A stretch of DNA of 33,433 nt from a virus (IMGVR_UViG_2917849834_000007:1-33433); one strand, 5' to 3'; positions 5,413 to 33,433 are shown, counted from the stretch's first letter. Notes: generated from the sequence alone by a model not told the origin. Numbers and translations are program-made.

Positions 5413-6603
5413 TTAATTGCTGTTAACCGAGGTGACCAGATTTGCCAGGTATTTATCGGTAATACGCTGGCGCAGGGTCAGGTTTTCAAGAGGAGGCACC
5501 GGGGTATAGTCGTAGTCGATATACAGTTTTCCGGCCTTGAGGGTTTCCGCATCGTTGGATTCTTCGCTGAACCAGCAGGTCGCATCCACGATATAGCCGT
5601 TTGTTTTCAGCTCACGGAATTTGGCATTGATACCGTCAACGATGTCGCGAATCAGCGTTGCGGTGATGGGCTTGTCCACCGCCCACATGTGCGCCTCAGC
5701 CATCGTGTCGGCCAGCACCTGCGCGGTGCGGGTGTAGTTTTCAAAGAGGAACAGCGGGTCATCAGAGCAGGTACGGTTACCCCAGAATCGGAAACCGTCG
5801 CGGCGAATCAGCGTAGTGACGCCTGACTCGTTAAGCAGGTCAGCATCAGTGCCGGACTCCTGCAAATCCCAGAATACAGATGCGCTGATGCCGGTAACAC
5901 CGTTTACCCCGACGTTGGACAGCGTTTTATGCCAGCCCTGCTCCTGGTCGATTTTAGCGCGCAGACCCAGCGCACGGGCGGTGGCATACGCGGTGGCGGT
6001 GGTGCTGGTGACCGTATCCCATGCGAGGAAATCCGGCCAGATGACCATCAGCTCACGCTGGCTGAAATTCTGGCGGTAGGCTTTCACCTCGGAAATGGTT
6101 TTACAGCCCCATGCGCTGATATACCCGAAAGCGCGCAGCTTCTGACAGACAGATGCCAGTGCAACAGCCACCTCTTTGGTGTCCAGTCCCGGTACGCCGA
6201 GAATACGCGGTTTAACACCGGTTACCGACTCCGCCGCCAGCAGGGCTTTCAGTCCGGTGTACTGACCGTTTTCGTCGGTGGTGCCGATGATATTGGAAAC
6301 GGTCTGCGCGAGTTTCGTTTCTTCGTCTTCGCCGGTGCCGTCTTCCACGCGCACGACAACGGTGACTGGTTTTGACTGGTCAGCGATGGCCTGCAATGAC
6401 GCCGCCAGCGTGCCTTTTTTACCTGCCTTTGCAATTGCGCTCTGCACATTGGTAATCAGCACCGGTTTATTGAGGGGGAAGGTTTCCGCATCCGCATCGC
6501 TGGCCGTACAGACCATGCCGACAATGGCAGTGGATACGGTGGAAATGACGCGGGTGCCGTCGTTAATCTCCAGCACCTGCACGCCGTGATGATAATCACT
6601 CAT
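5413..6603 (-). CDS. FI: Contractile tail sheath protein FI, 396 aa
   Basis: ORF track; ATG at 6601-6603 with GGAG ribosome-binding site upstream; position and size as P2 gpFI. Confidence 0.9.
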   Translation of the reverse strand: MSDYHHGVQVLEINDGTRVISTVSTAIVGMVCTASDADAETFPLNKPVLITNVQSAIAKAGKKGTLAASLQAIADQSKPVTVVVRVEDGTGEDEETKLAQTVSNIIGTTDENGQYTGLKALLAAESVTGVKPRILGVPGLDTKEVAVALASVCQKLRAFGYISAWGCKTISEVKAYRQNFSQRELMVIWPDFLAWDTVTSTTATAYATARALGLRAKIDQEQGWHKTLSNVGVNGVTGISASVFWDLQESGTDADLLNESGVTTLIRRDGFRFWGNRTCSDDPLFLFENYTRTAQVLADTMAEAHMWAVDKPITATLIRDIVDGINAKFRELKTNGYIVDATCWFSEESNDAETLKAGKLYIDYDYTPVPPLENLTLRQRITDKYLANLVTSVNSN

Positions 6604-6969
6604 CCGTTTAACTCCGTGGTTAATGGGTGAGTGGTATTTTCAGTTGTGCAGGGCAAGAGACGCTATTTGACCTGGCTGGTCAGTGGATGAAACAACAGAT
6701 AAAGAAAAGAGTGGCAATCAGCCCACCTGTCTTTATCTGTACTTACTCAGTTTCCAACTGAAAATTTATATAGCCAGAACACTAGACTATGAATCACTCG
6801 CAGAGCGTTTTAACCAGTGTTACGTCCACAGGCTGAACTCACAGTGAAAAGCAAATAGGGGATATTTTCCTCGTTTAAATGTTCAGTCAGGTCATTGCAA
6901 AAATCATGCACCACTGGAGTTAACCAGAGCCAAGATATAATCTCTTAGCTCTATTTACATTTAGGTACA

Positions 6970-7674
6970 TTATTTTTGTTTTTTTGGTGGCCTTGAGTGT
7001 TTTTCCGGTAATTTTTCTACGATTTTAAAAATGTTATTATCTTTTAGTACTGTTCGCATTACAAAGCTTTCTATAACAGCCAAAAGCGATTTAAATTCAT
7101 CTTCGTTCGGTGCCCATGCCCTATGTGCAGCTGAGTTGCCAGCTTCAGTTACAATTTTAAGTTGCTCTTTTTCTTTTTCCCCGATAAAACCTTCATCTTT
7201 GAGAATATCAACTTTCTGGCTTAATGTATATCCAGGGTGAATATCCAGAACCTCAACGGTTCTGTCAAAAATAGTTCTAAGCCCAATTGCCGCCAAAATG
7301 AATGATTTATTTTGAAATGCGATATACATTTCGTTCATTATTACATATAGCTGATAATCTTTGCTTAGCACCTCACCAAACCAATCAGGTCTAATTTCTT
7401 CCTGCTCTTGAGTAGGATATATTGATATATGTTCGTTATATATCATAAAATCATGCCCCGACCCATCTCTTTCTATGTCGTAATCTTCACTGTGACGGGA
7501 CTTTATATATGTAAATACTCCATCACACCCCATACACTCTAATAAATTATATTCACTCTCAGCCCAAAAGTAGTCATCCCCATCATTTTTACTCCACTCT
7601 CTTTTTGTATGACCTATTGTGAGACAATTTTTTTCACCTTTACAGTATGGGCAAGGCGCTTTAATTTTTTCCAT
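6970..7674 (-). CDS. AT-rich cargo protein, 234 aa, N-terminal CxxC...CxxC zinc ribbon, at the Z/fun position
   Basis: ORF track; ATG at 7672-7674; CPYC (aa 7-10) and CMGC (aa 47-50); sits between G and FI, flanked by non-coding AT-rich DNA (6604-6969 and 7675-7933); composition clearly lower in GC than the flanking tail genes. Confidence 0.75.
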   Translation of the reverse strand: MEKIKAPCPYCKGEKNCLTIGHTKREWSKNDGDDYFWAESEYNLLECMGCDGVFTYIKSRHSEDYDIERDGSGHDFMIYNEHISIYPTQEQEEIRPDWFGEVLSKDYQLYVIMNEMYIAFQNKSFILAAIGLRTIFDRTVEVLDIHPGYTLSQKVDILKDEGFIGEKEKEQLKIVTEAGNSAAHRAWAPNEDEFKSLLAVIESFVMRTVLKDNNIFKIVEKLPEKHSRPPKKQK

Positions 7675-7933
7675 GATAATTATTTTCCGCTTGAGTTAAC
7701 ATCGATACAGCATACATGCAAATAGGTTACAAATGATAACTTGACTGTATGTTTTACCACAATAATGTTTATGTGAAGTAGTTACAAGCATCCCTTTTTC
7801 TTTTACCGTAGATTATTTGCATTTATTAACACTGAGTTGGGGCATAATTTCCGCATTTGGCACAGGGCAGACCGCCAGATTGGGTTCTACACTGTGCTAT
7901 AGATGCGTAACCCCACACCAGATCTAATACGAT

Positions 7934-19829: not shown

Positions 19830-20002
19830 TGTCAGGAGTCCTGAATAGTGATTAGAGGAGTCACATGTCGGCATCAGTTTCCCGACGATGCGCATCCTCC
19901 GCCATCAGTCCCGGATGGCTTATCACTGACACAACAGCACCTTAGCGAATCGCGGGGCGCGACTAAGTAGCCTTGCCGTGTATTCATCACGGCGAGGTAT
20001 TC
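19830..20002. promoter_or_regulatory. Divergent O/P intergenic region, expected to hold the Ogr-dependent late promoters for the P-Q and O-N-M-L-X-Y... operons
   Basis: Position only, by analogy to P2; I could not find an exact TGT-N12-ACA element by eye. Confidence 0.4.
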
Positions 20003-21775
20003 ATGACCATCACCACAGACACCACTCTTTTACACGACCCGCGTCGTCAGGCGGCGCTGCTGTACTGGCAGGGATTTTCCGTGCCGCAGATTGCCGCCAT
20101 GTTGCAGATGAAACGCCCGACAGTGCAGAGCTGGAAACAGCGCGACGGCTGGGACAACGTTGCCCCCATCAGCCGTGTCGAAATGAGCCTGGAAGCGCGG
20201 CTGACCCAGCTCATCATCAAACCGCAGAAAACCGGCGGTGACTTCAAGGAAATTGACCTGCTGGGACGCCAGATTGAACGACTGGCACGGGTAAATCGCT
20301 ACAGCCAGACCGGCAACGAGGCAGACCTTAATCCGAACGTCGCTAACCGCAACAAAGGCGGGCGGCGCAAACCGAAAAAGAATTTTTTCAGTGACGAGGC
20401 CATCGAAAAGCTGGAGCAGATTTTCTTTGAGCAGTCTTTCGAATATCAGTTGCACTGGTATCGTGCCGGGCTTGAGCACCGCATCCGCGATATCCTGAAA
20501 TCCCGCCAGATTGGCGCGACGTTTTATTTTTCCCGCGAGGCGCTGCTGCGCGCCCTGAAAACCGGTCATAACCAGATTTTTCTGTCGGCCAGTAAAACGC
20601 AGGCGTATGTGTTCCGTGAATACATCATCGCCTTTGCCCGTCTGGTTGACGTTGACCTGACCGGTGACCCGATTGTCCTGGGCAATAACGGCGCAAAACT
20701 GATTTTTCTCGGCACCAACTCCAACACCGCACAGAGCCATAACGGCGACCTGTACGTCGATGAGATTTTCTGGATCCCGAATTTTCAGGTACTGCGTAAA
20801 GTGGCATCAGGTATGGCCTCACAGAGTCACCTGCGCTCGACCTATTTCTCCACCCCGTCCACGCTGGCGCACGACGCCTACCCGTTCTGGTCGGGTGAAC
20901 TGTTTAACCGGGGACGCGCCAGCGCCGCCGAACGCGTGGAAATCGACGTCAGTCATAACGCCCTTGCCGGTGGGCTTCTCTGTGCGGACGGCCAGTGGCG
21001 GCAGATTGTCACCATTGAGGACGCCCTGAAAGGTGGCTGCACGCTGTTCGACATTGAGCAGCTCAAACGCGAAAACAGCGCCGACGATTTTAAAAACCTG
21101 TTCATGTGTGAATTTGTTGACGACAAGGCGTCGGTGTTCCCGTTCGAGGAGCTGCAACGCTGCATGGTCGACACGCTGGAAGAATGGGAAGACTACGCGC
21201 CGTTTGCCGCAAATCCGTTCGGCTCCCGCCCGGTATGGATTGGTTACGACCCGTCACACCGTGGCGACAGCGCCGGATGCGTGGTGCTGGCACCGCCGGT
21301 GGTGGCCGGTGGCAAATTCAGGATACTTGAGCGTCACCAGTGGAAAGGCATGGACTTTGCCACCCAGGCTGAATCCATCCGCAAACTCACCGAAAAATAT
21401 AACGTCGAATACATCGGTATTGATGCCACCGGCCTCGGTGTCGGCGTGTTCCAGCTCGTGCGCTCGTTCTATCCCGCCGCGCGCGATATCCGCTACACAC
21501 CGGAAATGAAAACCGCAATGGTGCTCAAGGCAAAAGACGTTATCCGTCGTGGCTGTCTGGAATATGACGTCAGCGCCACCGACATCACCAGCTCGTTTAT
21601 GGCTATCCGCAAGACCATGACCAGCAGCGGACGCAGCGCCACCTATGAGGCCAGCCGCAGCGAGGAAGCCAGCCACGCCGACCTCGCCTGGGCGACCATG
21701 CACGCCCTGTTAAATGAGCCACTCACCGCCGGTATCAGCACCCCGCTGACATCCACCATTCTGGAGTTTTACTGA
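20003..21775 (+). CDS. P: Terminase large (ATPase) subunit P, 590 aa
   Basis: ATG at 20003 inside ORF 19973..21775 gives MTITTDTTLLHDPRRQAALLYWQGF...; stop TGA overlaps the Q start (TGATG at 21773-21777). Confidence 0.9.
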   Translation: MTITTDTTLLHDPRRQAALLYWQGFSVPQIAAMLQMKRPTVQSWKQRDGWDNVAPISRVEMSLEARLTQLIIKPQKTGGDFKEIDLLGRQIERLARVNRYSQTGNEADLNPNVANRNKGGRRKPKKNFFSDEAIEKLEQIFFEQSFEYQLHWYRAGLEHRIRDILKSRQIGATFYFSREALLRALKTGHNQIFLSASKTQAYVFREYIIAFARLVDVDLTGDPIVLGNNGAKLIFLGTNSNTAQSHNGDLYVDEIFWIPNFQVLRKVASGMASQSHLRSTYFSTPSTLAHDAYPFWSGELFNRGRASAAERVEIDVSHNALAGGLLCADGQWRQIVTIEDALKGGCTLFDIEQLKRENSADDFKNLFMCEFVDDKASVFPFEELQRCMVDTLEEWEDYAPFAANPFGSRPVWIGYDPSHRGDSAGCVVLAPPVVAGGKFRILERHQWKGMDFATQAESIRKLTEKYNVEYIGIDATGLGVGVFQLVRSFYPAARDIRYTPEMKTAMVLKAKDVIRRGCLEYDVSATDITSSFMAIRKTMTSSGRSATYEASRSEEASHADLAWATMHALLNEPLTAGISTPLTSTILEFY

Positions 21776-22809
21776 TGAGCAAGAAAAAAGGGAAAACACC
21801 GCAACCTGCGGCAAAAACAATGACCGCCAGCGCCCCGAAAATGGAGGCATTCACCTTCGGTGAGCCGGTACCGGTACTCGACCGGCGTGACATTCTGGAT
21901 TACGTCGAATGCATCAGTAACGGCAGATGGTATGAGCCACCGGTCAGCTTTACCGGTCTGGCAAAAAGCCTGCGTGCTGCCGTACATCACAGCTCACCGA
22001 TTTACGTTAAACGCAATATTCTGGCCTCGACATTTATCCCGCATCCGTGGCTTTCCCAGCAGGATTTCAGCCGCTTTGTGCTGGATTTTCTGGTGTTCGG
22101 TAATGCGTTTCTGGAAAAGCGTTACAGCACCACCGGTAAGGTCATCAGACTGGAAACCTCACCGGCAAAATATACCCGCCGTGGTGTGGAAGAGGATGTT
22201 TACTGGTGGGTGCCGTCCTTCAACGAGCCGACACCTTTCACGCCCGGCTCCGTGTTTCACCTGCTGGAGCCGGATATTAATCAGGAGCTGTACGGCCTGC
22301 CGGAATATCTCAGCGCCCTTAACTCTGCCTGGCTGAATGAGTCGGCCACGCTGTTCCGCCGCAAGTATTACGAAAACGGCGCACATGCCGGATACATCAT
22401 GTACGTCACCGATGCCGTGCAGGATCGCAACGATATCGAAATGCTTCGCGAAAACATGGTTAAGTCGAAAGGCCGCAATAACTTTAAAAACCTGTTTCTC
22501 TATGCCCCACAGGGGAAAGCCGACGGCATTAAAATTATCCCGCTCAGTGAAGTGGCAACGAAAGACGATTTTTTTAATATCAAAAAAGCCAGCGCCGCAG
22601 ACCTGCTGGACGCGCACCGCATCCCCTTTCAGTTGATGGGTGGCAAGCCGGAGAACGTCGGGTCACTGGGAGATATTGAGAAAGTGGCAAAGGTCTTTGT
22701 CCGCAATGAGCTTATCCCGCTACAGGACAGGATTCGGGAAATAAACGGCTGGCTCGGTCAGGAGGTCATCCGCTTTAAAAACTACTCACTGGACACTGAC
22801 AACGGCTGA
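21775..22809 (+). CDS. Q: Portal protein Q, 344 aa
   Basis: ORF track; last gene before cos, as in P2. Confidence 0.9.
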   Translation: MSKKKGKTPQPAAKTMTASAPKMEAFTFGEPVPVLDRRDILDYVECISNGRWYEPPVSFTGLAKSLRAAVHHSSPIYVKRNILASTFIPHPWLSQQDFSRFVLDFLVFGNAFLEKRYSTTGKVIRLETSPAKYTRRGVEEDVYWWVPSFNEPTPFTPGSVFHLLEPDINQELYGLPEYLSALNSAWLNESATLFRRKYYENGAHAGYIMYVTDAVQDRNDIEMLRENMVKSKGRNNFKNLFLYAPQGKADGIKIIPLSEVATKDDFFNIKKASAADLLDAHRIPFQLMGGKPENVGSLGDIEKVAKVFVRNELIPLQDRIREINGWLGQEVIRFKNYSLDTDNG

Positions 22810-22836: not shown

Positions 22837-22978
22837 ACACCCCGTCATCACGCCCTCACACGCTCACCACCGCACAAAACATCCCGCAGACCCACCAACG
22901 CCCCGGCGCACAATCCAAACGCCGTCACGACGCGCTCAGACGCTGAAAAAATAAAATCAGCACCACCGCCAGCGCGCA

Positions 22979-22997
22979 GTGCTTTCCCCGCCTCGCC
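22979..22997 (-). other. cos: cos cohesive-end site (19 nt)
   Basis: + strand gtgctttccccgcctcgcc; its reverse complement GGCGAGGCGGGGAAAGCAC is the P2 cohesive end as I recall it; located just beyond Q as in P2. Confidence 0.7.
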
Positions 22998-23120
22998 CGC
23001 CCGCTTCATGGGTCGGTTTTAATGCAGGTGCATGACATGATTTCTCCGCGCCGACACTGGCACGGAGCACTCTTAACAGATAAACAATAATCATGCATTC
23101 TAATGCAGCAACATAAAAGT

Positions 23121-25142
23121 TTATAATTTCCTCAACAATTTCCCATTGTTCTTATCAAAGGATATCATTGTATAGTCATACCCTTCTAATGCCTCTTTTA
23201 AGACATTTTCATCTTCTGATGTAGCAAAAATGATCTGCCCTTGTCCTTTTGTTGTTTCTGCAGCATCTTTAAGTAACTCGGCAAAACTTACTTTATTTGC
23301 TTCTTGTTGACGAGGCTCATCAAACACAATCAATCCAGGGTGATTTGTTTGAAATTTAGAACCAACAACAAATAAACTTATTAAATAACCCCAAATGATT
23401 CTTATTCCATCACTAGCTGATGTGTCAAAACCTATATCATATCCTTCCCTAGTAGGTAAGTAATTATCTTCTGATATTGACACAAGTTTAGAATCAAAAC
23501 TTGTAAAATTATATTTTTCTAATCGTGCAACGACTTCTTTATTAAGAAATTTTAACTTATCGGCATCATTACGCGACAAGAAATTATCTGGCAATCCTTT
23601 TCTTTTCGCGATAAGCTTTTTATATCTACGGTGTAATGAATCCAACTCCAGTCTAATGTCCAATATACTTTTAATGCCATCGTTAATGGCATTAATTTTA
23701 TTCTCAATGTTTATTTTACGTCTCAGAAACTCCTCCTGAACAACCATTGAGGGATATTTTGACTCCCTTAATGCATTAATATCAACTCTAATCTTGGCTA
23801 TTTCCCCCTCTAAATCACTCCTCTCAACATCTTTAAGCTTTAATTGCTTTTCACTATCCGACAGAACAAACTCAAATGCTTTTACTTGCTCTTTAATAAA
23901 GTTCAAACTATCTTCATATGTCATCAGATTTTCTTGCGATGAAAAACTTAGCAAATTATCATTATAACTTGCACCACAAGTCGGACAAATATTTGACATT
24001 AAATCTGTTGACTTATACGCATCCGAAGATGATATTTTCTTTAAATCTTCATACTTCCTTTTATCTTCCAACAGATTATACAATCTGTTTTTGGTCGCCT
24101 GAATTTGATATTGAATATAACTTCTATGCTCACAAATCTCTTTAATCTTTAATTCCAGAGAGTTAATTTCATCATTTTTTTGACCTAATAACTTAACCAC
24201 TGATAATTGTAAAGTTTGTTCTTCTTGCTCACCAAGAGTGTCAAACTTAATTTCTTGCAACTCTTTTTCCAGTTCATTACGAACATCAACAATAGATCTA
24301 ACGACACTACCATTTTTAATAATCAAATCTATCTTATAATGATCAAATTTTGCCACTGGTTGTTCAGGAATCCCTGTGACAACTGACGACAATTTAGAAG
24401 CAATAACTTCTGCATTGTGTTTAATTAACTTCCAATCATGATAAATAATATCAAGCTCATTTCTTAACGAACTACGCAATAAAATATTATCATTAACATC
24501 AAGAGACATTAAAAATTCTAGAGCTCTTTTCTTTGGCTCTTTAATTCCAAATTGTGTTGGTACAGTCGCCATAATTGACGACCATCCTTTTTTTTGCTCA
24601 ACATACCATGCAGGGAAAAGTACGGATGGATAAAGAATAGTGTCCTTCCCATTATGGTTTGGAACATTTGGCAAACTCCAACCTATAAAATCAGCTAACC
24701 ACTTATAGAAACCACGTTCCCTTTCAGTATCGCCCTCTCTATGTAAAAAATAAGTACCACTCTTACTTTTTACATTATTCTTCTCATCTATATAAATAAC
24801 ATTATTATTATCGTGACCGATAATATTCCTTTTCAAAGATGCTTCTATTCCCTTATGATTCTTTATTTTTAGCAAAACATAAGATGATATTACACTAACT
24901 TCAACATTATCTTTTGTCGTTAGTGCTCTAGTCAAAGATGGAGGGAATGGGATTTTTCCAGAACCGACACCTAATGCCTTTTCCATCCCAAGTGCATATG
25001 CAATCCCATTCATGCAAGTTGATTTACCATGAGAATTCTCAACTCTTAATAAAAACAAGCCATTTGAAAAAGGTATACTAACACCATAACGCCCATCCGA
25101 AGTATTTGCTACTAACTCCAATGAAATAATTTCCAACGACAT
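23121..25142 (-). CDS. Rad50/SbcC-like coiled-coil ABC ATPase with CPxC zinc hook, 673 aa; third gene of cargo operon
   Basis: Hand-checked motifs: Walker A ENSHGKST near 25013-25036; central coiled coil with CPTCG near 23971-23988; Walker B GLIVFDEP near 23310-23340; signature-like SASDG. ATG at 25140-25142 with AGGTGGG ribosome-binding site. Low GC. Confidence 0.8.
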   Translation of the reverse strand: MSLEIISLELVANTSDGRYGVSIPFSNGLFLLRVENSHGKSTCMNGIAYALGMEKALGVGSGKIPFPPSLTRALTTKDNVEVSVISSYVLLKIKNHKGIEASLKRNIIGHDNNNVIYIDEKNNVKSKSGTYFLHREGDTERERGFYKWLADFIGWSLPNVPNHNGKDTILYPSVLFPAWYVEQKKGWSSIMATVPTQFGIKEPKKRALEFLMSLDVNDNILLRSSLRNELDIIYHDWKLIKHNAEVIASKLSSVVTGIPEQPVAKFDHYKIDLIIKNGSVVRSIVDVRNELEKELQEIKFDTLGEQEEQTLQLSVVKLLGQKNDEINSLELKIKEICEHRSYIQYQIQATKNRLYNLLEDKRKYEDLKKISSSDAYKSTDLMSNICPTCGASYNDNLLSFSSQENLMTYEDSLNFIKEQVKAFEFVLSDSEKQLKLKDVERSDLEGEIAKIRVDINALRESKYPSMVVQEEFLRRKINIENKINAINDGIKSILDIRLELDSLHRRYKKLIAKRKGLPDNFLSRNDADKLKFLNKEVVARLEKYNFTSFDSKLVSISEDNYLPTREGYDIGFDTSASDGIRIIWGYLISLFVVGSKFQTNHPGLIVFDEPRQQEANKVSFAELLKDAAETTKGQGQIIFATSEDENVLKEALEGYDYTMISFDKNNGKLLRKL

Positions 25143-25143
25143 A

Positions 25144-25620
25144 TTAACCCACCTGAAATATTTTATTAATGTTAGTTTCGGACAGTCCAGCCTTATGTTT
25201 ATTTAGCACCAACCTTTCTTCTTTGAACACATCAAGAGAAAGCAATTTCTCAGCGACCTTAAGCCCCTTTTCATTTATTTTGAACGCTCGTTCATTTCTC
25301 AAAATAAAATCCTCTGCTAATAATAGCTGTATTGCTCTATCTAAAGTTGGATCCAATCTTACTTCAGGCTTTAAACCTTCTTTGTTTAAAAGCCAGAATT
25401 CAAACATTGCTTCATTATTCTCTGACTTTAACATCCAATTAATTAAATGAAGTTTTTTTAAAGAACAGCAACCAGCTCTCCCTGTGACAAGGAATATTAT
25501 CAGCAACAAACTGCAACGCCACAATGGTCTCATATCACATGGCAAATGTTCAGGTCGTTTATTAAACGTAAACGGCCTTCCTATTATTTCATCTATCGTT
25601 ATATGCATTTGCTTTTCCAT
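25144..25620 (-). CDS. Small protein of unknown function, 158 aa; possible middle component
   Basis: ORF track; ATG at 25618-25620; stop TAA 25144-25146 is 1 nt from the ATPase start; start is 1 nt from the stop of the upstream gene. Low GC. Confidence 0.7.
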   Translation of the reverse strand: MEKQMHITIDEIIGRPFTFNKRPEHLPCDMRPLWRCSLLLIIFLVTGRAGCCSLKKLHLINWMLKSENNEAMFEFWLLNKEGLKPEVRLDPTLDRAIQLLLAEDFILRNERAFKINEKGLKVAEKLLSLDVFKEERLVLNKHKAGLSETNINKIFQVG

Positions 25621-25621
25621 T

Positions 25622-26542
25622 CTAAAAATCTAAAGGGCATCTTATAAGCCAATCAGAAATAACTCCCCATGTTATCTTATCCAAGTCAGCCTGTTTAAGC
25701 GTACTAACTTCCTCTTCAATACATTTCTTTAACAAAGCGATTTCATCTTTCATTATATCTGATGGTTTCGCATCTGATGAAGTAAGAAGAAAGAGACCTA
25801 CCAAATTACGTTCTCTATGTTGAACACAGTTATAGATAATTTCATAGATATCAACCCAGTCTCTCTTCAAAGCATCCAGCAAGTTTTGATAATCAAGATA
25901 TTTTTGTATTAAAAACTCTCTATATAAACCCTGCCTAGATACATCATCATTTATCTTAGGTAATTTTAAATTTAGCTTATCTAAAAAAGATGTATTTTCA
26001 CTAATAAAGTTAGCAGCATTCTCAGCCGTCGCATCATTTATATTAAAGCTTAATTGATAGTTATTTTTGCGAAGAAAGAACGCTTCTTCTATATAATTTC
26101 GATCTGTTTGCACTACTATTTGAAAATCATCAGCAACGTAAGAAATCCCTAACTCTCTTACTTTTAATGATTTTTTTGTGCAATATTGACTTAATTTCGC
26201 CGATTTATTATATGGTGTAGCTAATATCCAGCGGCTAATTTTTAATGTGCCAAAAAGCTCCTCTAATTCTTTAATGTTATCCTGAGAAAACTTTTTTATA
26301 TCAGTATAAATCTTTTTTTGTTGCGCTTTATAAAGCTTATCAATATCACTCGACTGCTCAGGCAAGTAACACTGAAAAACATGACCACTCAGAGTGTAAC
26401 ACTCCAGCCCAAAGTCGCCTCCATGCTCATCTGGCAAGTCACAACAGTTAGCAGGCTTATAATGTAGCCAAACAATATTTTTGAAATATGATTCCCACGC
26501 TTTTGGGTCACTATAAGGATCGTTATACATCGCCAAGCCCAT
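25622..26542 (-). CDS. Protein of unknown function, 306 aa; candidate effector, first gene of cargo operon
   Basis: ORF track; ATG at 26540-26542; N-terminal Cys/His/acidic cluster (NCCDLPDEHGGDFGLECY) that I cannot assign to a fold. Low GC. Confidence 0.7.
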   Translation of the reverse strand: MGLAMYNDPYSDPKAWESYFKNIVWLHYKPANCCDLPDEHGGDFGLECYTLSGHVFQCYLPEQSSDIDKLYKAQQKKIYTDIKKFSQDNIKELEELFGTLKISRWILATPYNKSAKLSQYCTKKSLKVRELGISYVADDFQIVVQTDRNYIEEAFFLRKNNYQLSFNINDATAENAANFISENTSFLDKLNLKLPKINDDVSRQGLYREFLIQKYLDYQNLLDALKRDWVDIYEIIYNCVQHRERNLVGLFLLTSSDAKPSDIMKDEIALLKKCIEEEVSTLKQADLDKITWGVISDWLIRCPLDF

Positions 26543-26652
26543 AAATCAATTTTTTGTAGTATAACTTCTTACACATCAAAGAGTAAATCCACCTAGTTTG
26601 CAAATTATCAACCTACAAGAGTGTTTCGGTGTGCAGATTTTTCATATTTAGA
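26543..26652 (-). promoter_or_regulatory. Intergenic region between A stop and the cargo operon; candidate sigma70 promoter
   Basis: Minus strand reads ...TTTACT-(18 nt)-TATACT-(about 19 nt)-ATG; -10-like hexamer at + coords 26558-26563. Read by eye only. Confidence 0.3.
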
Positions 26653-28926
26653 TTACCACCTCGAAAATGCTTCCCACGCCTTCTGAACATGGTAATGAAA
26701 TTCTTTTGCGCCATAGTTCACAATTGCACCACGCGCCAGCGCCTCAAGCTCCCATCGCTGCGGCCTGATACCGTTCTGAGCAAGGTCTACACGGATACGG
26801 GTAATTTGCAATCGTTCCGACCGGGTCAGCCTGGCTGATGGCGCTATTTCATGCGGTTTTAACGGGCTTCCGTTTCTTTGCTGACGATTTGGTGTTCTCA
26901 GTCCGTGTTTTAATGCACCTCTGAGCGCCCTCACGACCTCCGGGTCATTCCATTCGATAACACCGTCATCAACCAGATTAAGCACTGCTGCGGCGTGCTC
27001 AGAAGGTGTGGGAGCCGGTAACGAAGTATCACCACCGGTGACCTTTCCACAGTTATTGACAGGACTCCGAGGCGCGGCGATGCCGCTTTTTAAAGTCAAA
27101 GGCTCAACGACCGGCACTTTCGGAACAATGCGCCAGTCCGTCGTTCTGGTGATATGAATATGACGCGCGCCGAGATGCGGCGCGTAAATGCCGACCACTC
27201 TCTCGACTTCTTCCTCGTACTCGTTAACTTCATCCGACGGACTACGGGCGACCCTGACAGTCTGACAATCGCGCGGGACATTTGCCCCACCCTGCGCGCT
27301 GATATACAGCGCAAAATCACCACTGTCTGCGGCGGCGCGTGCAGCCTCGACACGCTCGTCAAACTCATCAGCAATGCTGACGCCGCGAGGCAATTTGCGT
27401 AGTTCACGGTAAGCCCCCATTGTCGGCAGGCCAACCGTTTTAAATTGCGGAATGCGCCACGTTGACGCCCATGTGGTAACAGCCGCAGCAGTATCTTTCA
27501 GCGGCCTGCCGGTGTCGTTATCGAGCTGCCCATCCAGTGCATAGCCGTCGATATTTTTTGAGATGTATTTCGCGATATACCCCGCAGCACCGCCCCGGTT
27601 AAGGTGTTTTGCCTGAAAACGGTTTCGCGCGGCTCCTCTTTCGTCGCCATCCTCTTTGAGCGCATAGCGACGCATGATTTCGATAATCTGGTTACGCTGG
27701 CGTGGATTACAAAAAAGCATCATATGCCAGTGCGGCGTTCCGTCGTGGTGTGGCTCGACGACACGCAAACCGTAGACCTGTAAATCATTATCCTTGAATG
27801 CCGTGCGCATCAGGCTCCAGATACGGCAGAGATAACGCTGCGCATCCTTTGGATTAAATGCCTCATCGTTCCAGCCGTGATTAAGCTGAACGGTTTTACT
27901 TTCGCCTTTTCCGACCTGACGTGTCGGGTGATACTTTGACGGCGCGGTCAGCGTGATAAACATCCCCACATCACCCTCTGCGGCGGCGTAACGCTCAATA
28001 CCGGCAATGGTGTTCATCAGCTCCATCCGGCGAATTTCTGGATTAGAAATACTGCCCATCACCTTACTGATAAGGTCGATGCGCTCGCCGGTTTCCCTGT
28101 TTTCGAGGTCGCACGATTTAAGAAATTCCAGATTTGCCTGGCGGCGTGCACGCACATCACGAATGGCATGTTTACTGGCATAAGGAGAACGGTCTTTATT
28201 GACCTCCCCGACAGCAATCAGTAACGCCTCATGCCAGCGCATACGCTGGCCTTTAAGCTGACTAATCCACCACTCATCGTTAAACAGACGGGCAATGGCA
28301 GAATATGCCTGCCTCGTGGTCATCTGTCCTTTACGGTATTTTTTCCAGTAGAGAGGGGAAATATTGAAAGCACGTGCAGCGCCAGCAACATGACCATACA
28401 GGTGAGCCTGCGCCTCATCCGTAAACAGTGATTCTTTTTCGCCATGCGCATCCACCCAGGCATCGCTGAGTTCCTCATACATCATGAAAAGCTGCGATGA
28501 GATACGGGCAGCAAACTTTTTCAGCTCCTTGTCATTCATTCCCGGCAGGCGCGCATAGTGGTCACGCTCTGCCAGAAACAGCAACGACGCGTCGGTGTTC
28601 ATTTCATGGCGCTGATTCACACGCTCAATGCGCGGCCATAAACGACGCTGAAAAGTGGATGTGAGGAAATAAAACCCGTGCACCGGGCTTTTATTGCGCC
28701 GGATGTAGTCATAGCGTGAAGTAAACAGCGAACGCAAAAAGTAAGGCAGGCGGTTAATCGTGGATAAAACACCTTGCACCTGACGCATCTCGTCACGTGT
28801 AAGGGGTCTTTCGCGCCCGACAGCCTCGCGTGGCGCGTTCCATGCATAAGCACCGGAAAACGTCTTACCGGTGCCTGCGGTAAATGCTGACGGAGGGACA
28901 AAACGCCCGGAGGCTTTAACGGCCAT
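26653..28926 (-). CDS. A: Replication initiation endonuclease A (rolling-circle initiator), about 757 aa
   Basis: ATG at 28924-28926 inside ORF 26653..28968 gives MAVKASGRFVPPSAF..., matching P2 gpA as recalled; the start at 28968 is an alternative. Confidence 0.85.
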   Translation of the reverse strand: MAVKASGRFVPPSAFTAGTGKTFSGAYAWNAPREAVGRERPLTRDEMRQVQGVLSTINRLPYFLRSLFTSRYDYIRRNKSPVHGFYFLTSTFQRRLWPRIERVNQRHEMNTDASLLFLAERDHYARLPGMNDKELKKFAARISSQLFMMYEELSDAWVDAHGEKESLFTDEAQAHLYGHVAGAARAFNISPLYWKKYRKGQMTTRQAYSAIARLFNDEWWISQLKGQRMRWHEALLIAVGEVNKDRSPYASKHAIRDVRARRQANLEFLKSCDLENRETGERIDLISKVMGSISNPEIRRMELMNTIAGIERYAAAEGDVGMFITLTAPSKYHPTRQVGKGESKTVQLNHGWNDEAFNPKDAQRYLCRIWSLMRTAFKDNDLQVYGLRVVEPHHDGTPHWHMMLFCNPRQRNQIIEIMRRYALKEDGDERGAARNRFQAKHLNRGGAAGYIAKYISKNIDGYALDGQLDNDTGRPLKDTAAAVTTWASTWRIPQFKTVGLPTMGAYRELRKLPRGVSIADEFDERVEAARAAADSGDFALYISAQGGANVPRDCQTVRVARSPSDEVNEYEEEVERVVGIYAPHLGARHIHITRTTDWRIVPKVPVVEPLTLKSGIAAPRSPVNNCGKVTGGDTSLPAPTPSEHAAAVLNLVDDGVIEWNDPEVVRALRGALKHGLRTPNRQQRNGSPLKPHEIAPSARLTRSERLQITRIRVDLAQNGIRPQRWELEALARGAIVNYGAKEFHYHVQKAWEAFSRW

Positions 28927-29191
28927 ATGAGCCAAAAGCCTCTGAACAACGCCTGCTGAGTTGCTCAACCTGCGCGTTTAAATCAGCAAAAGACTTTGCG
29001 CTTCCGGTCAGAATATCGTGATGCATCAGGCCGGAAACGAGCTGGCTTAATTTCGGGTAATAACCAACCACCGCCAGCCATTCCTGACCGGCGTTTTTAC
29101 CGCTTTCAGCTCTCTTTTTCTCGTGGAGAATAAACTGAAAGCTGTCACTGGTAACGACATAACGTTCGCCAATTTCAATACGAATACTCAT
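28916..29191 (-). CDS. Early-operon protein, P2 orf83-like, 91 aa
   Basis: ORF track; position immediately upstream of A. Confidence 0.7.
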   Translation of the reverse strand: MSIRIEIGERYVVTSDSFQFILHEKKRAESGKNAGQEWLAVVGYYPKLSQLVSGLMHHDILTGSAKSFADLNAQVEQLSRRCSEAFGSYGR

Positions 29192-30977: not shown

Positions 30978-31574
30978 TCAATCTACTTTGCGCCATGAGT
31001 ATTTTTGCATTCCTGGCGCATATTTTTCTACAGCATTAATAATACTCAGCGCATCAAATTCGCTATAACCTTTTTCGTCACCCGATAACTTTGATACTCC
31101 GTAGTACACATGACCGATAAACCTGTCATTTTCATAACAAGCTCTACAGTATAGAGTCACATAGTTGCGTAATGGGGTTAGCTCGCAACCAATAATAGAA
31201 AGATCACCAAAACGCAAAATCTCAAATTTACTTGATTTGCTTCTTTTTGTTTTAGTTGGGGCATGTTGATTCTGGCTGATTAACGCAAATGACTCTTGTA
31301 AATTATTTATAATCTCATTACGTTCATCTCTTTTGTTATTTTCCAGCCTGACACATCCACATTTAATTAAATGCGTCAAAGTCTCAATTTCTGCAGCTCT
31401 TACAGGTAAAGCCAGAAAATTAACTTCTTCTTCTAATTTTTTCGCTTCAATTTCTATGTCATCAACTATGGCTGATACGTTAGATTGCCCTTCAATCGAC
31501 AAAAGTCTCGTGCGCAGCTCGATGATCAACGATTGAATTTTTTTAGCTGCCGTGTTTCCTACTATAGTGTTCAT
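30978..31574 (-). CDS. Protein of unknown function, 198 aa; AT-rich cargo between cox and orf78
   Basis: ORF track; ATG at 31572-31574; no motif I recognise. Confidence 0.7.
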   Translation of the reverse strand: MNTIVGNTAAKKIQSLIIELRTRLLSIEGQSNVSAIVDDIEIEAKKLEEEVNFLALPVRAAEIETLTHLIKCGCVRLENNKRDERNEIINNLQESFALISQNQHAPTKTKRSKSSKFEILRFGDLSIIGCELTPLRNYVTLYCRACYENDRFIGHVYYGVSKLSGDEKGYSEFDALSIINAVEKYAPGMQKYSWRKVD

Positions 31575-31583
31575 AACATGCCC

Positions 31584-31940
31584 TCACACCATACGCCCTA
31601 ATTTCGACTTGCTATAACTAATGCGGTTCTTCCAGTCATGCCATTCTGTCGGAGCTTCATCGACTAGTTGAGCTGCATATTTGTCCCACTCACGACGATT
31701 AATCCATAACTCAGCATTCCCCCCTGGCTTCAGTGGGTCTGTCATATAGAACGCAGGGAGCTTGCCTGCTCTCGCCATTTCTGCTACAGCGCGTGGTGTC
31801 TTACCTATGTAAAGAGCAAAACCCTCTTTCGACAGCAAATCTGAAGGCACAGCAGCCAATTTAACTGAATGACGTTTTGCTTTTGTAAGAACTGAGACTT
31901 CTTGTCTTGTCTCGTCAGAAATTTCAGATCCGACATTCAT
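31584..31940 (-). CDS. cox: Cox-like excisionase / early transcriptional regulator, 118 aa
   Basis: ORF track; ATG at 31938-31940; the segment FALYIGKTPRAVAEMARAGKLPAFYMTDP resembles the Cox DNA-binding region; first gene of the early operon, divergent from C. Confidence 0.7.
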   Translation of the reverse strand: MNVGSEISDETRQEVSVLTKAKRHSVKLAAVPSDLLSKEGFALYIGKTPRAVAEMARAGKLPAFYMTDPLKPGGNAELWINRREWDKYAAQLVDEAPTEWHDWKNRISYSKSKLGRMV

Positions 31941-32044: not shown

Positions 32045-32344
32045 ATGTCAATTGAGATTCGTGAGAAACTTAAACTTATTCGTGAGTCTGAACGCCTCAA
32101 GAAGAAGGAAGTAGCTGAAATGACAGGTATTAATTACGTTACCTATGTGGGGTACGAAAATGGGAAATCATCCATTTCACATGACGCGGTAGTGCGACTT
32201 CTGAAACACCCAAGATTCCGTAAATATCGTGACTGGTTCATGTTTGATGAGACAGATCCCGCTGCCGGACAAATAGCCCCGGCGCTCGCACACATTGGGC
32301 AAGACTCAACAACCTTGCACCACTCAGACCAAAAGACTGGCTGA
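32045..32344 (+). CDS. C: Immunity repressor C, 99 aa
   Basis: ORF track; ATG at 32045; the segment GQIAPALAH and the 99-aa length resemble P2-type C repressors as recalled. Confidence 0.75.
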   Translation: MSIEIREKLKLIRESERLKKKEVAEMTGINYVTYVGYENGKSSISHDAVVRLLKHPRFRKYRDWFMFDETDPAAGQIAPALAHIGQDSTTLHHSDQKTG

Positions 32345-32437: not shown

Positions 32438-33433
32438 ATGTCTATTAAAAAGCTCGATGATGGTCGTTATGAAGTGGACGTCAGACCGCAGGGTGCAGAT
32501 GGAAAACGTATCAGGCGGAAATTTAAAACTAAGGGTGAAGCTCAAGCATTCGAACGTCATGTCCTGGTTAACTACCACAACAAAGAGTGGTTGGAGAAGC
32601 CAGCCGACCGCCGAACTCTTACAGAGTTGTTAGGCAGATGGTGGATATATCACGGAAAATCACATGAGCGTGGAGATATTGAACGGGGGCGTTTGACGAC
32701 AATAATCGCCAAATTTGCAGAAATGGGAGTGTCCAGAGCTGACCAGCTAACAAAGAAAACGATAACTGATTATCGCGTTGTAATGATGAACGATGGTCTT
32801 AAACCAGCCAGCGTAAATCGGCATCTGGCAATAATGAGCGGGATGTTCACCAAGTTAATTGACGCCGGTGAATACCACTCTCACAACCCGTTCCGTGAGG
32901 TTAAGCGGTTACGTGAAGCTGTTACGGAAATGGCTTTTTTGTCCAGTGAAGAGATTACGCGGCTGTTATCCATGCTTGATGGTGATGAATTAAATGCAAC
33001 TCTGGTCTGCCTTTCTACTGGTGGACGCTGGAGTGAAGTGTCAAATTTAAAAGCTGAACACATCATTAACCAGATGGTTACGTTTATGAAAACTAAAAAC
33101 GGAAAGCGCAGGACAATTCCCGTGTCGCAGGACCTGATTAAACGGATCAAGACCAAAAATTCAGGCAGGCTTTTTAATGCCAGTTACTACAAAGTGCGCA
33201 ACGCTCTCAGGGAAGTAAAACCCGATTTACCTGACGGACAGGCAGTGCATGTTTTGAGGCATACATTTGCCACACATTTTATAATGAATGGAGGTAACAT
33301 AATCACATTGCAGCGCATCCTGGGTCATTCTAACATTCAGCAAACTATGACCTACGCACACTTTGCACCGGATTTCTTACAAGATGCTGTGACTCTTAAC
33401 CCGGTGTCAGGAATGTCCATAATGCGTCCATAA
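32438..33433 (+). CDS. int: Tyrosine integrase, 331 aa
   Basis: ORF track; GGAGGG ribosome-binding site before ATG 32438; C-terminal HxLRHTFAT...GHS...Y catalytic-motif region of tyrosine recombinases. Confidence 0.9.
   Translation: MSIKKLDDGRYEVDVRPQGADGKRIRRKFKTKGEAQAFERHVLVNYHNKEWLEKPADRRTLTELLGRWWIYHGKSHERGDIERGRLTTIIAKFAEMGVSRADQLTKKTITDYRVVMMNDGLKPASVNRHLAIMSGMFTKLIDAGEYHSHNPFREVKRLREAVTEMAFLSSEEITRLLSMLDGDELNATLVCLSTGGRWSEVSNLKAEHIINQMVTFMKTKNGKRRTIPVSQDLIKRIKTKNSGRLFNASYYKVRNALREVKPDLPDGQAVHVLRHTFATHFIMNGGNIITLQRILGHSNIQQTMTYAHFAPDFLQDAVTLNPVSGMSIMRP

Follow-up and report, generated by a model that had tools for sequence, protein, structure and literature searches.

A probable type II zinc-hook Lamassu defence cassette in the gpA–cos hotspot of a P2-like Escherichia coli prophage

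Systems of the Lamassu family need three components, LmuA, the ATPase LmuB and LmuC, and act by abortive infection (Millman et al. 2022, 10.1101/2022.05.11.491447). Among them, the Lamassu-Mrr system of E. coli O150:H5 SE15 (SG108) has been validated: it protected against the lytic phage SECphi27, acts by abortive infection, and requires its ATPase, the active site of its effector and LmuC (10.1101/2022.05.11.491447). Solved structures represent the Lamassu Cap4 type II systems of Salmonella enterica (LmuACB) and V. cholerae (DdmABC; PDB 9hqu, 9hqx, 9hr5, 9nxx, 9ny5, 9uxh), and Rad50–Mre11/SbcCD has been proposed as the evolutionary ancestor of Lamassu (PMC12663957). The gpA–gpQ region of P2-like phages, for its part, is a defence hotspot whose reference cargo is old and tin (Rousset et al. 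2022, PMC9122126), and Lamassu-family members occur in the hotspots described there (Millman et al., 10.1101/2022.05.11.491447). Here we analyse a three-gene cassette in IMGVR_UViG_2917849834_000007:1-33433, a stretch of 33,433 nucleotides (nt) that we call the window and that as a whole is a complete P2-like prophage. We propose, with a rough probability of 85%, that the cassette is a type II 'short' zinc-hook Lamassu defence system with the gene order lmuA-lmuC-lmuB, horizontally acquired as AT-rich cargo in the gpA–cos hotspot of a P2-like E. coli prophage.

The cassette consists of three co-directional minus-strand open reading frames (ORFs; Table 1), the sole minus-strand ORFs between gene A and cos, and our ORF listing agrees exactly, both in position and in size (306, 158 and 673 amino acids, aa), with an earlier reading of this DNA made without database searches (the sequence-only reading). 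In DNA of the same composition, open frames of these lengths would arise by chance with probabilities of about 1e-12, 1e-6 and 1e-26, respectively. The low GC content that the same reading had estimated by eye is borne out by measurement, at 33.1% in 23121-26542 vs 52.4% in the remaining window, with sharp steps at about 23050 and about 26650 in a 100-nt profile. The genes abut as TAG-A-ATG (spacer at 25621) and TAA-T-ATG (spacer at 25143), and the single-nucleotide spacers are thus present as first read; the gap between lmuA and lmuC may, however, be 13 nt instead of 1 nt given the RefSeq starts of lmuA (26530) and lmuC (25608), each of which lies 12 nt, or four codons, inside the first in-frame ATG and which yield proteins of 302 aa and 154 aa (the latter beginning MHITI), respectively. 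Most homologs of both proteins likewise start four codons in, at the position of M5 (MYNDP in LmuA), and the ATG at 26530 is likely the true start of lmuA. A GGAAAAG sequence 5' of 25608 resembles a better ribosome-binding site for lmuC. Tight spacing is kept in distant homologs (gaps of -1, 3, 11 and 1 nt), and the three genes, on one strand with 1-nt gaps, stay together in E. coli, Pseudomonas and Leptolyngbya, as a single inherited, co-transcribed unit would.

The assignment to Lamassu is carried by profile searches on all three proteins and by fold searches on LmuA and LmuB, which pointed to Lamassu and gave no assignment to a system with a non-defence role. In PADLOC-DB, LmuA matches model PDLC03852 (1.1e-29), LmuC matches PDLC03871 (2.5e-23, profile positions 1-148 of 156) and LmuB matches PDLC03863 (1.1e-98, full length); the matches span nearly the whole profiles, and no other defence family was matched. 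The same three models are the best ones for the SE15 Lamassu-Mrr proteins (PDLC03852, 1.4e-105; PDLC03871, 4e-57; PDLC03863, 2.6e-105; sequences taken from supplementary file 11 of Millman 2022), so that the window proteins match the LmuA/LmuC/LmuB profile set of a validated Mrr-type system. Together with the fold matches of LmuA and LmuB, these results support the layout proposed from the sequence, namely an effector, a middle component and a Rad50/SbcC-like ATPase in an ABC-3C or Lamassu arrangement.

LmuB has the Walker A and Walker B motifs of an SMC/Rad50-like ABC ATPase. In its AlphaFold (AF2) model, which has a predicted local distance difference test score of 84, the ATPase head is split and two long helical arms run antiparallel (residues ~216-372 and 409-543), with the CPTC motif placed in the apical loop between the two long helices; the arms are of the 'short' kind, and zinc binding by the apical CxxC is predicted. 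In a Foldseek search against the PDB, the top five matches are all solved LmuB chains (9uxh_F, 9hqx_B, 9hqx_f, 9ux7_A and 9hqu_A, with E values from 4.5e-14 for 9uxh_F to 2.5e-11), and Rad50, SMC, MukB, SbcC and JetC rank after them. The GKST (39-42) and CPTC (386-389) motifs singled out by the sequence-only reading are both there, and they are conserved across 41 diverse homologs, among which Q183 is invariant as well (Table 1). On the strength of its 673-aa length and its hhhhDE Walker B, LmuB fits the 'short' Lamassu class (the ~600-aa type), for which a Walker B of the form hhhhD[Q/S/T/E] has been reported (Haudiquet et al., PMC12663957). The Walker A lysine K40 is the residue mutated in studies of LmuB from V. 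cholerae (K40A, PMC12663957) and Salmonella (K40I, 10.1101/2025.03.14.643221). Because the Salmonella system needs its zinc hook (10.1101/2025.03.14.643221), the invariant CPTC hook of the window LmuB is, by analogy, probably functional.

The sequence-only reading could not recognise the 306-aa protein as any known effector domain, a statement superseded both by its PADLOC LmuA model, shared with SE15 Lamassu-Mrr, and by its predicted structure. The top PDB fold matches of the AlphaFold model are the solved Lamassu LmuA chains. The N-terminal domain adopts a PD-(D/E)xK restriction-endonuclease fold (Mrr/FokI-like), with an alpha-beta-beta-beta-alpha-beta core and acidic residues at beta-2 and beta-3, and its best structural matches are active nucleases. 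LmuA thus consists of an N-terminal effector domain and a C-terminal domain, to which the family definition gives a docking or oligomerisation role. LmuC, in turn, shares its best model with the validated SE15 LmuC, which has been annotated as a winged helix-turn-helix (wHTH) protein (Millman et al. 2022, 10.1101/2022.05.11.491447), and in Pseudomonas and Leptolyngbya, too, lmuA and lmuB flank a gene for a protein of 153-161 aa, as expected of a small middle component. A published remark on LmuC reads '1 TM in protein 2' (one transmembrane segment) (Rousset et al. 2022, PMC9122126); this is likely a false positive, because the hydrophobic helix patterns with the first helix of a wHTH-type LmuC (P-L-x6-L-x-I-L).

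The window proteins resemble those of the solved Salmonella and V. cholerae systems in having three components, in the folds of LmuA and LmuB, in the Walker A lysine K40, which is found in all, and in the succession of a PD-(D/E)xK-superfamily nuclease and an oligomerisation domain; Salmonella LmuB likewise has a functional zinc hook (10.1101/2025.03.14.643221). They differ in sequence (~9-15% identity), in the N-terminal domain of the effector, which is Cap4/DUF4297 with catalytic Lys K57 or K68 in the solved systems and Mrr-like with QxY in the window, and in Walker B, which is deviant in the solved systems vs a canonical D-E in the window LmuB (10.1101/2025.03.14.643221). V. cholerae LmuB, unlike that of the window, lacks a zinc hook (PMC12663957).

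The position of the cassette agrees with the sequence-only reading, which had put it at the cos-proximal tin/old slot of P2: gene A (Phage_GPA) lies on one side, and cos and the portal gene on the other. The cos site matches the P2-type cos core exactly (Table 1). The P2 proteins encoded in this slot are unrelated to those of the window cassette, and so are their mechanisms: Old is a nuclease of the Toprim/ATPase kind, and Tin acts on the single-stranded DNA-binding protein of T-even phages. What is alike is the gene A–cos hotspot and, by our reading, the ecological role, namely the prophage-encoded exclusion of other phages (PMC9122126). P2-like phage genomes align on the cos side only to ~23042, and in a collection of phage genomes we found no sequenced phage with the cargo, only matches to the backbone. 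Of 5,426 complete E. coli genomes, 2,156 have the flanks and 32 have the cargo, which is always chromosomal and 99.4-100% identical; this is the pattern of hotspot cargo that varies among similar prophages.

Table 1. Features of the cassette and of the surrounding prophage, with positions in the window.
Feature	Position	Strand	Remarks
lmuA	25622..26542	-	306 aa; effector, N-terminal PD-(D/E)xK (Mrr-like) nuclease-fold domain (~residues 1-160), helical C-terminal domain
lmuC	25144..25620	-	158 aa; small middle component
lmuB	23121..25142	-	673 aa; Rad50/SMC-like ABC ATPase, split head, antiparallel coiled-coil arms, apical zinc hook
LmuB Walker A core G39-K40-S41-T42	25017..25028	-	G39, K40 and S41 invariant in 41 diverse homologs
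LmuB zinc-hook motif C386-P-T-C389	23976..23987	-	C386, P387 and C389 invariant in 41 homologs
LmuB signature-like motif A576-S577-D578	23409-23417	-	invariant in 41 homologs
LmuB Walker B L-I-V-F-D608-E609	23316..23333	-	D608 and E609 invariant in 41 homologs
LmuA active-site motif G42-D43-F-G45-L-E47 ... Q57-C58-Y59	26366..26419	-	parallels Mrr-type 'GDxGxD...QCK', with Tyr for the catalytic Lys
LmuA K77 codon	26312..26314	-	invariant Lys on helix alpha-2 (140/140); candidate relocated catalytic lysine
AT-rich cargo block, 33% GC	23050..26650		between gene A and cos; 100-nt GC profile
Candidate sigma-70 promoter TTTACT, 18-nt spacer, TATACT	26558..26587	-	consensus scan, 9/12 matches
P2-type cos core (reverse complement of GGCGAGGCGGGGAAAGCAC)	22979..22997		exact match; 123 nt past the lmuB stop codon
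Gene A-type replication endonuclease (flank)	26653..28968	-	Pfam Phage_GPA 2e-123; RefSeq 'replication endonuclease'
Portal gpQ (flank)	21775..22809	+	Pfam Phage_portal; RefSeq annotation
gpP-type terminase	19973-21775	+	Pfam Terminase_6N/6C, Terminase_5; RefSeq annotation
234-aa ORF in Z/fun slot	6970..7674	-	N-terminal CxxC...CxxC; Pfam DUF4145 1.4e-13; PADLOC no match
198-aa ORF	30978-31574	-	no Pfam or PADLOC match
cox	31584-31940	-	early operon
C-type repressor	32045-32344	+	
Integrase	32438-33433	+	reaches the end of the window

Outside E. coli, the LmuA and LmuB families coincide in taxonomic range (Serratia, Pantoea, Cronobacter, Salmonella, Yersinia, Shewanella, Pseudomonas, Pseudoalteromonas, Methylophilus and others), and their locus tags are adjacent. 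Pseudomonas sp. MM211 carries the same cassette (300/153/676 aa) at an unremarkable chromosomal site. A Leptolyngbya genome has it (304/161/673 aa) next to a NERD-UvrD helicase, a YhcG-type nuclease and part of an integrase, a neighbourhood that resembles a defence island. The cassette is a self-contained mobile module. Among the E. coli carriers we noted variation in NZ_CP069459 (H6), NZ_CM185151 (H54) and NZ_CP049967 (H62): in one, the two pieces of the match are separated by an IS5 transposase; in another, a serine/threonine kinase gene lies close by; and in another, an additional 'AAA family ATPase' feature suggests a split lmuB.

RefSeq names the three proteins 'hypothetical' in all 32 carriers, O145:H28 outbreak strains included, because Pfam and NCBIfam are silent: neither gave anything above threshold for LmuA, LmuC or LmuB. 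The locus is nevertheless already catalogued, and it is detectable as Lamassu with standard tools. Table S5A of Rousset et al. lists the cassette by accession (WP_024174129 + ... + WP_000548273) as 'hypothetical + hypothetical + hypothetical', and Table S5B contains it as system #51, 'AAA_13/DUF3732', with 79 occurrences (PMC9122126). The LmuC and LmuA of system #51 are identical to those of the window, and its LmuB matches from M44 on, over the portion given in the supplement; the entry differs in being catalogued without a Lamassu assignment and in having an N-terminally truncated LmuB as its representative. That representative begins at M44 (MNGIAYALG; window 23121-25013) and so is without Walker A, which probably contributed to the label 'AAA_13/DUF3732' in place of SMC or Lamassu. 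We also considered the validated P1-protecting system that Rousset et al. describe as 'three genes with no clear predicted domain', and rejected it as a match, as the window sequences are absent from their tables of cloned systems.

Several observations weigh against the Lamassu assignment or against its extension to function. The cassette is missing from those tables of cloned systems, and its accessions appear in no paper of the literature searched. LmuC is identified by its sequence profile only. Searches with phmmer and hmmsearch against PDB sequences returned no meaningful match for the three proteins or for the LmuA profile, and Foldseek template modelling scores are 0.3-0.46, a poor global superposition that is expected for flexible multi-domain and coiled-coil proteins. 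Pfam run on 47 members of the LmuA clade gave noise only, with no match to Mrr_cat or to the ABC-3C C-terminal domain PF20282. BLASTP found no similarity between the window and SE15 proteins, and the two LmuA families remained unaligned by hmmsearch and hhalign also; the link to SE15 consists of common PADLOC models, a common fold and a short common motif. Lastly, the canonical catalytic lysine is missing in the LmuA clade, so that nuclease activity is not assured.

Direct homology to SE15-type LmuA, all listed homologs of which contain PF20282, was thus not found. We accordingly rejected identity with the validated SE15 Lamassu-Mrr, which is outside the 32 carriers found at the DNA level and for which BLASTP is blank, and kept the same-subtype label by way of the PADLOC models. 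The two systems are alike in gene order, lmuA-lmuC-lmuB (379/168/620 aa in SE15 vs 306/158/673 aa in the window), in the GDxGx[D/E]...QC[x] skeleton and in a restriction-endonuclease-fold effector. They are unlike in that SE15-type LmuA has D...QCK and PF20282, whereas E...QC(Y/F) characterises the window clade, which lacks any Pfam match and is ~75 aa shorter, and in that the window cassette is AT-rich P2 cargo. Because the PADLOC models and the motif skeleton are common to both, yet the proteins do not align, we would class the system with Mrr-type Lamassu, as a divergent relative that lies outside the SE15 clade proper.

Our own data concern the identity of the components, their architecture, the conservation of motifs and cassette, and the hotspot location; the stoichiometry, the DNA-end trigger, the nuclease activity and the abortive-infection outcome are carried over to the window clade from Cap4-type systems (PMC12663957, 10.1101/2025.03.14.643221, 10.1101/2025.06.23.660979). 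By extension from these, a LmuB dimer, joined via the CPTC zinc hook, and one LmuC would keep monomeric LmuA inactive, with its C-terminal oligomerisation domain sequestered. DNA ends or aberrant replication intermediates of an incoming phage or plasmid would be sensed by LmuB and LmuC, and ATP binding and hydrolysis at K40 and D608-E609 would free LmuA. The freed effector would oligomerise via its C-terminal domain (to a tetramer in the solved cases) and so bring its PD-(D/E)xK domains together as an active pocket; indiscriminate DNA degradation would then kill the infected cell and protect the lysogen population, and hence the prophage.

The target of such a response need not be a lytic phage. 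The V. cholerae Lamassu (DdmABC) acts on plasmids and phages (10.1101/2022.05.11.491447, 10.1101/2025.03.14.643221), validated Cap4-type systems protect against P1 and lambda and not against T4, T6 and T7 (10.1101/2025.03.14.643221), and P2-hotspot cargo can act on related P2-like phages (PMC9122126). The main role of the cassette might accordingly be the exclusion of plasmids or of rival temperate phages and satellites, in the manner of DdmABC. We consider this unlikely, if still deserving of serious attention, in view of the protection by SE15 Lamassu-Mrr against lytic SECphi27; and, as it involves the same molecular mechanism, it is compatible with the cassette being a Lamassu defence system.

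Two observations bear on expression of the cassette. The 33% GC block is likely, if speculatively and by analogy, a target of H-NS, because a retron in the same P2-type hotspot is silenced by H-NS and mutation of hns de-represses a Lamassu locus (10.64898/2026.09.05.749240). A candidate sigma-70 promoter ends 16 nt 5' of the first lmuA ATG (Table 1); such sites are common in AT-rich DNA, with 23 found in the region vs 14.6 expected, and this one is a weak candidate for the cassette promoter.

The residual unusual feature of the cassette is the clade-wide replacement of the canonical catalytic lysine of LmuA by Tyr or Phe. An exhaustive profile search put the size of the clade at 912 representatives at 50% identity, 469 of them with E ≤ 1e-30. 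In a scan for GDxGx[D/E]...QC[x], 118 of 120 members in each LmuA family carry the pattern, in the form E...QCY in the window clade and D...QCK in the SE15 type, the respective letters being "HGGDFGLE...FQCYLPE" in the window protein and "GGAGDKGRD...YQCKHY" in SE15-type LmuA. The complete Mrr-type motif (GDxGxD ... QxK, with its beta-3 Lys) is thus not present, as Tyr or Phe replaces the lysine and the acidic residue is Glu in most cases. At the beta-3 Lys position, the 147 best, most divergent LmuA representatives have Tyr or Phe and never Lys; the correspondence between Y59 and the Mrr lysine is drawn from the motif pattern and predicted strand positions, not from a residue-level alignment.

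Conservation elsewhere in the domain suggests how the loss may be made good. In 140 full-length LmuA representatives, D43, Q57, K77 and K193 are strictly invariant, and G42, G45, E47 (E or D), Y59 (134 Tyr, 6 Phe), W298 and C302 are nearly so; D81 is found in 137 and K84 in 138 of the 140. K77, D81 and K84 form a K77-x3-D81-x2-K84 pattern on the helix after beta-3 (helix 67-88 in the LmuA model). LmuA probably has a PD-(D/E)xK site with a relocated lysine, in which K77 would take over the role of the beta-3 Lys. The broader proposal, that a large LmuA clade has rebuilt the PD-(D/E)xK site with an aromatic residue for the beta-3 Lys and with K77 (together with D81 and K84) supplied from the following helix, we put forward only tentatively. 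In active PD-(D/E)xK enzymes the lysine can be substituted or relocated: BamHI has Glu and BglII has Gln there, and the Cfr10I/NgoMIV group provides further cases.

These precedents also count against a different interpretation of the same positions, in which the architecture is Lamassu and LmuA is not a conventional DNase, either because it acts on another substrate or by another chemistry (for example nicking, RNA as substrate, or binding and occluding DNA without cutting it) or because it is attenuated. At the lysine position all 118 of the close clade members have Tyr and the divergent ones Tyr or Phe, the hydroxyl of Y59 would not be catalytic because Phe is tolerated there, and the Mrr_cat Pfam is unmatched, all of which fit such an effector. 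The remaining active-site positions are strictly kept, however, with D43 and Q57 in all 140 representatives and E47 as E or D; the invariant helix pattern next to them fits a relocated lysine; and the best structural matches of LmuA are active nucleases. We therefore judge the unconventional effector improbable and prefer a Lamassu nuclease with an altered site.

Two further features of LmuA are conserved across its clade. The C-terminal decapeptide DWLIRCPLDF (residues 297-306, window 25625-25654) is almost invariant, with W298 and C302 at 99%, and SE15-type LmuA likewise ends in a conserved W-C-x-P; the decapeptide may be a docking or oligomerisation element of the C-terminal domain. The invariant K193 (window 25964-25966) lies in KLNLK193LPKI at the start of that domain, and it may contact DNA or sit at the inter-domain interface.

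The sequence-only reading had left room for a new effector variant or a distinct system, and this alternative, a new defence system or effector class that is like Lamassu or ABC-3C in layout only, can draw on the absence of any Pfam or NCBIfam family for the three proteins, on their 'hypothetical' status throughout RefSeq and on the lack of sequence-level similarity to the validated SE15 proteins. It is largely refuted, and we regard it as highly improbable: all three proteins match PADLOC Lamassu models over their full length (1e-23 to 1e-98), the solved LmuA and LmuB are the top fold matches, and the effector fold is that of an ordinary PD-(D/E)xK nuclease. Nor is the cassette itself new, as exactly this set of genes is system #51 in Table S5B of Rousset et al.

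In its ABC ATPase head, its antiparallel coiled coil and its CxxC zinc hook, LmuB resembles Rad50–Mre11 and SbcCD; it differs from them in having LmuA and LmuC as partners in place of Mre11/SbcD and in a much shorter coiled coil; by analogy, the window system would 'detect and kill' where they 'detect and repair'. That the cassette is a housekeeping or prophage-maintenance DNA repair module of the SbcCD/Rad50 kind without an immune role is barely credible, for although LmuB has the Rad50/SbcC architecture, Rad50 and SbcC complexes are among its fold matches, and about a quarter of P2 hotspots hold non-defence cargo such as partition systems (PMC9122126), there is no Mre11/SbcD phosphoesterase partner, the partners that are present match LmuA and LmuC models, Rad50 ranks below Lamassu LmuB chains among the fold matches, the cassette is patchily distributed and mobile (32 of 5,426 E. 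coli genomes) and foreign in composition, and one homolog lies in a defence-island-like neighbourhood.

Reading the cassette as a Lamassu system assigns a function to three proteins that RefSeq calls hypothetical and gives a Lamassu name to system #51 of the P2-hotspot catalogue. The practical value is modest: it adds a further case of P2-like prophages carrying abortive-infection systems, which bears on the prediction of host range in phage therapy, and mechanistic studies could use the cassette as a compact zinc-hook Lamassu native to E. coli. If the rewired active site is real, LmuA would be a structurally distinct nuclease variant, whose activity, substrate or activation threshold could differ from those of Cap4- and Mrr-type effectors, and the escape of the clade from domain annotation would be explained. 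The change from Lys to Tyr or Phe also bears on how far the 'release and oligomerise' switch of Lamassu tolerates a rewired nuclease chemistry.

The remainder of the window, in which the tail genes sit left of the terminase gene, contains other stretches of low GC content. A second AT-rich island (GC 36-38%) at 6600-7930 lies between tail-sheath-like and tail-fibre-assembly-like genes, a position that corresponds to the Z/fun slot of P2, and the 234-aa ORF in it (Table 1) is possibly a second cargo or defence gene; a zinc_ribbon/DUF4145 protein is labelled 'putative nuclease' in a table of Rousset et al. 2022 (PMC9122126). Directly downstream of cox, a third low-GC stretch (GC 0.36 at 31001-31500) contains the 198-aa ORF, which may be another moron. 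A GC-rich minus-strand ORF of 53 aa (22848-23009) overlaps cos and is very likely spurious.

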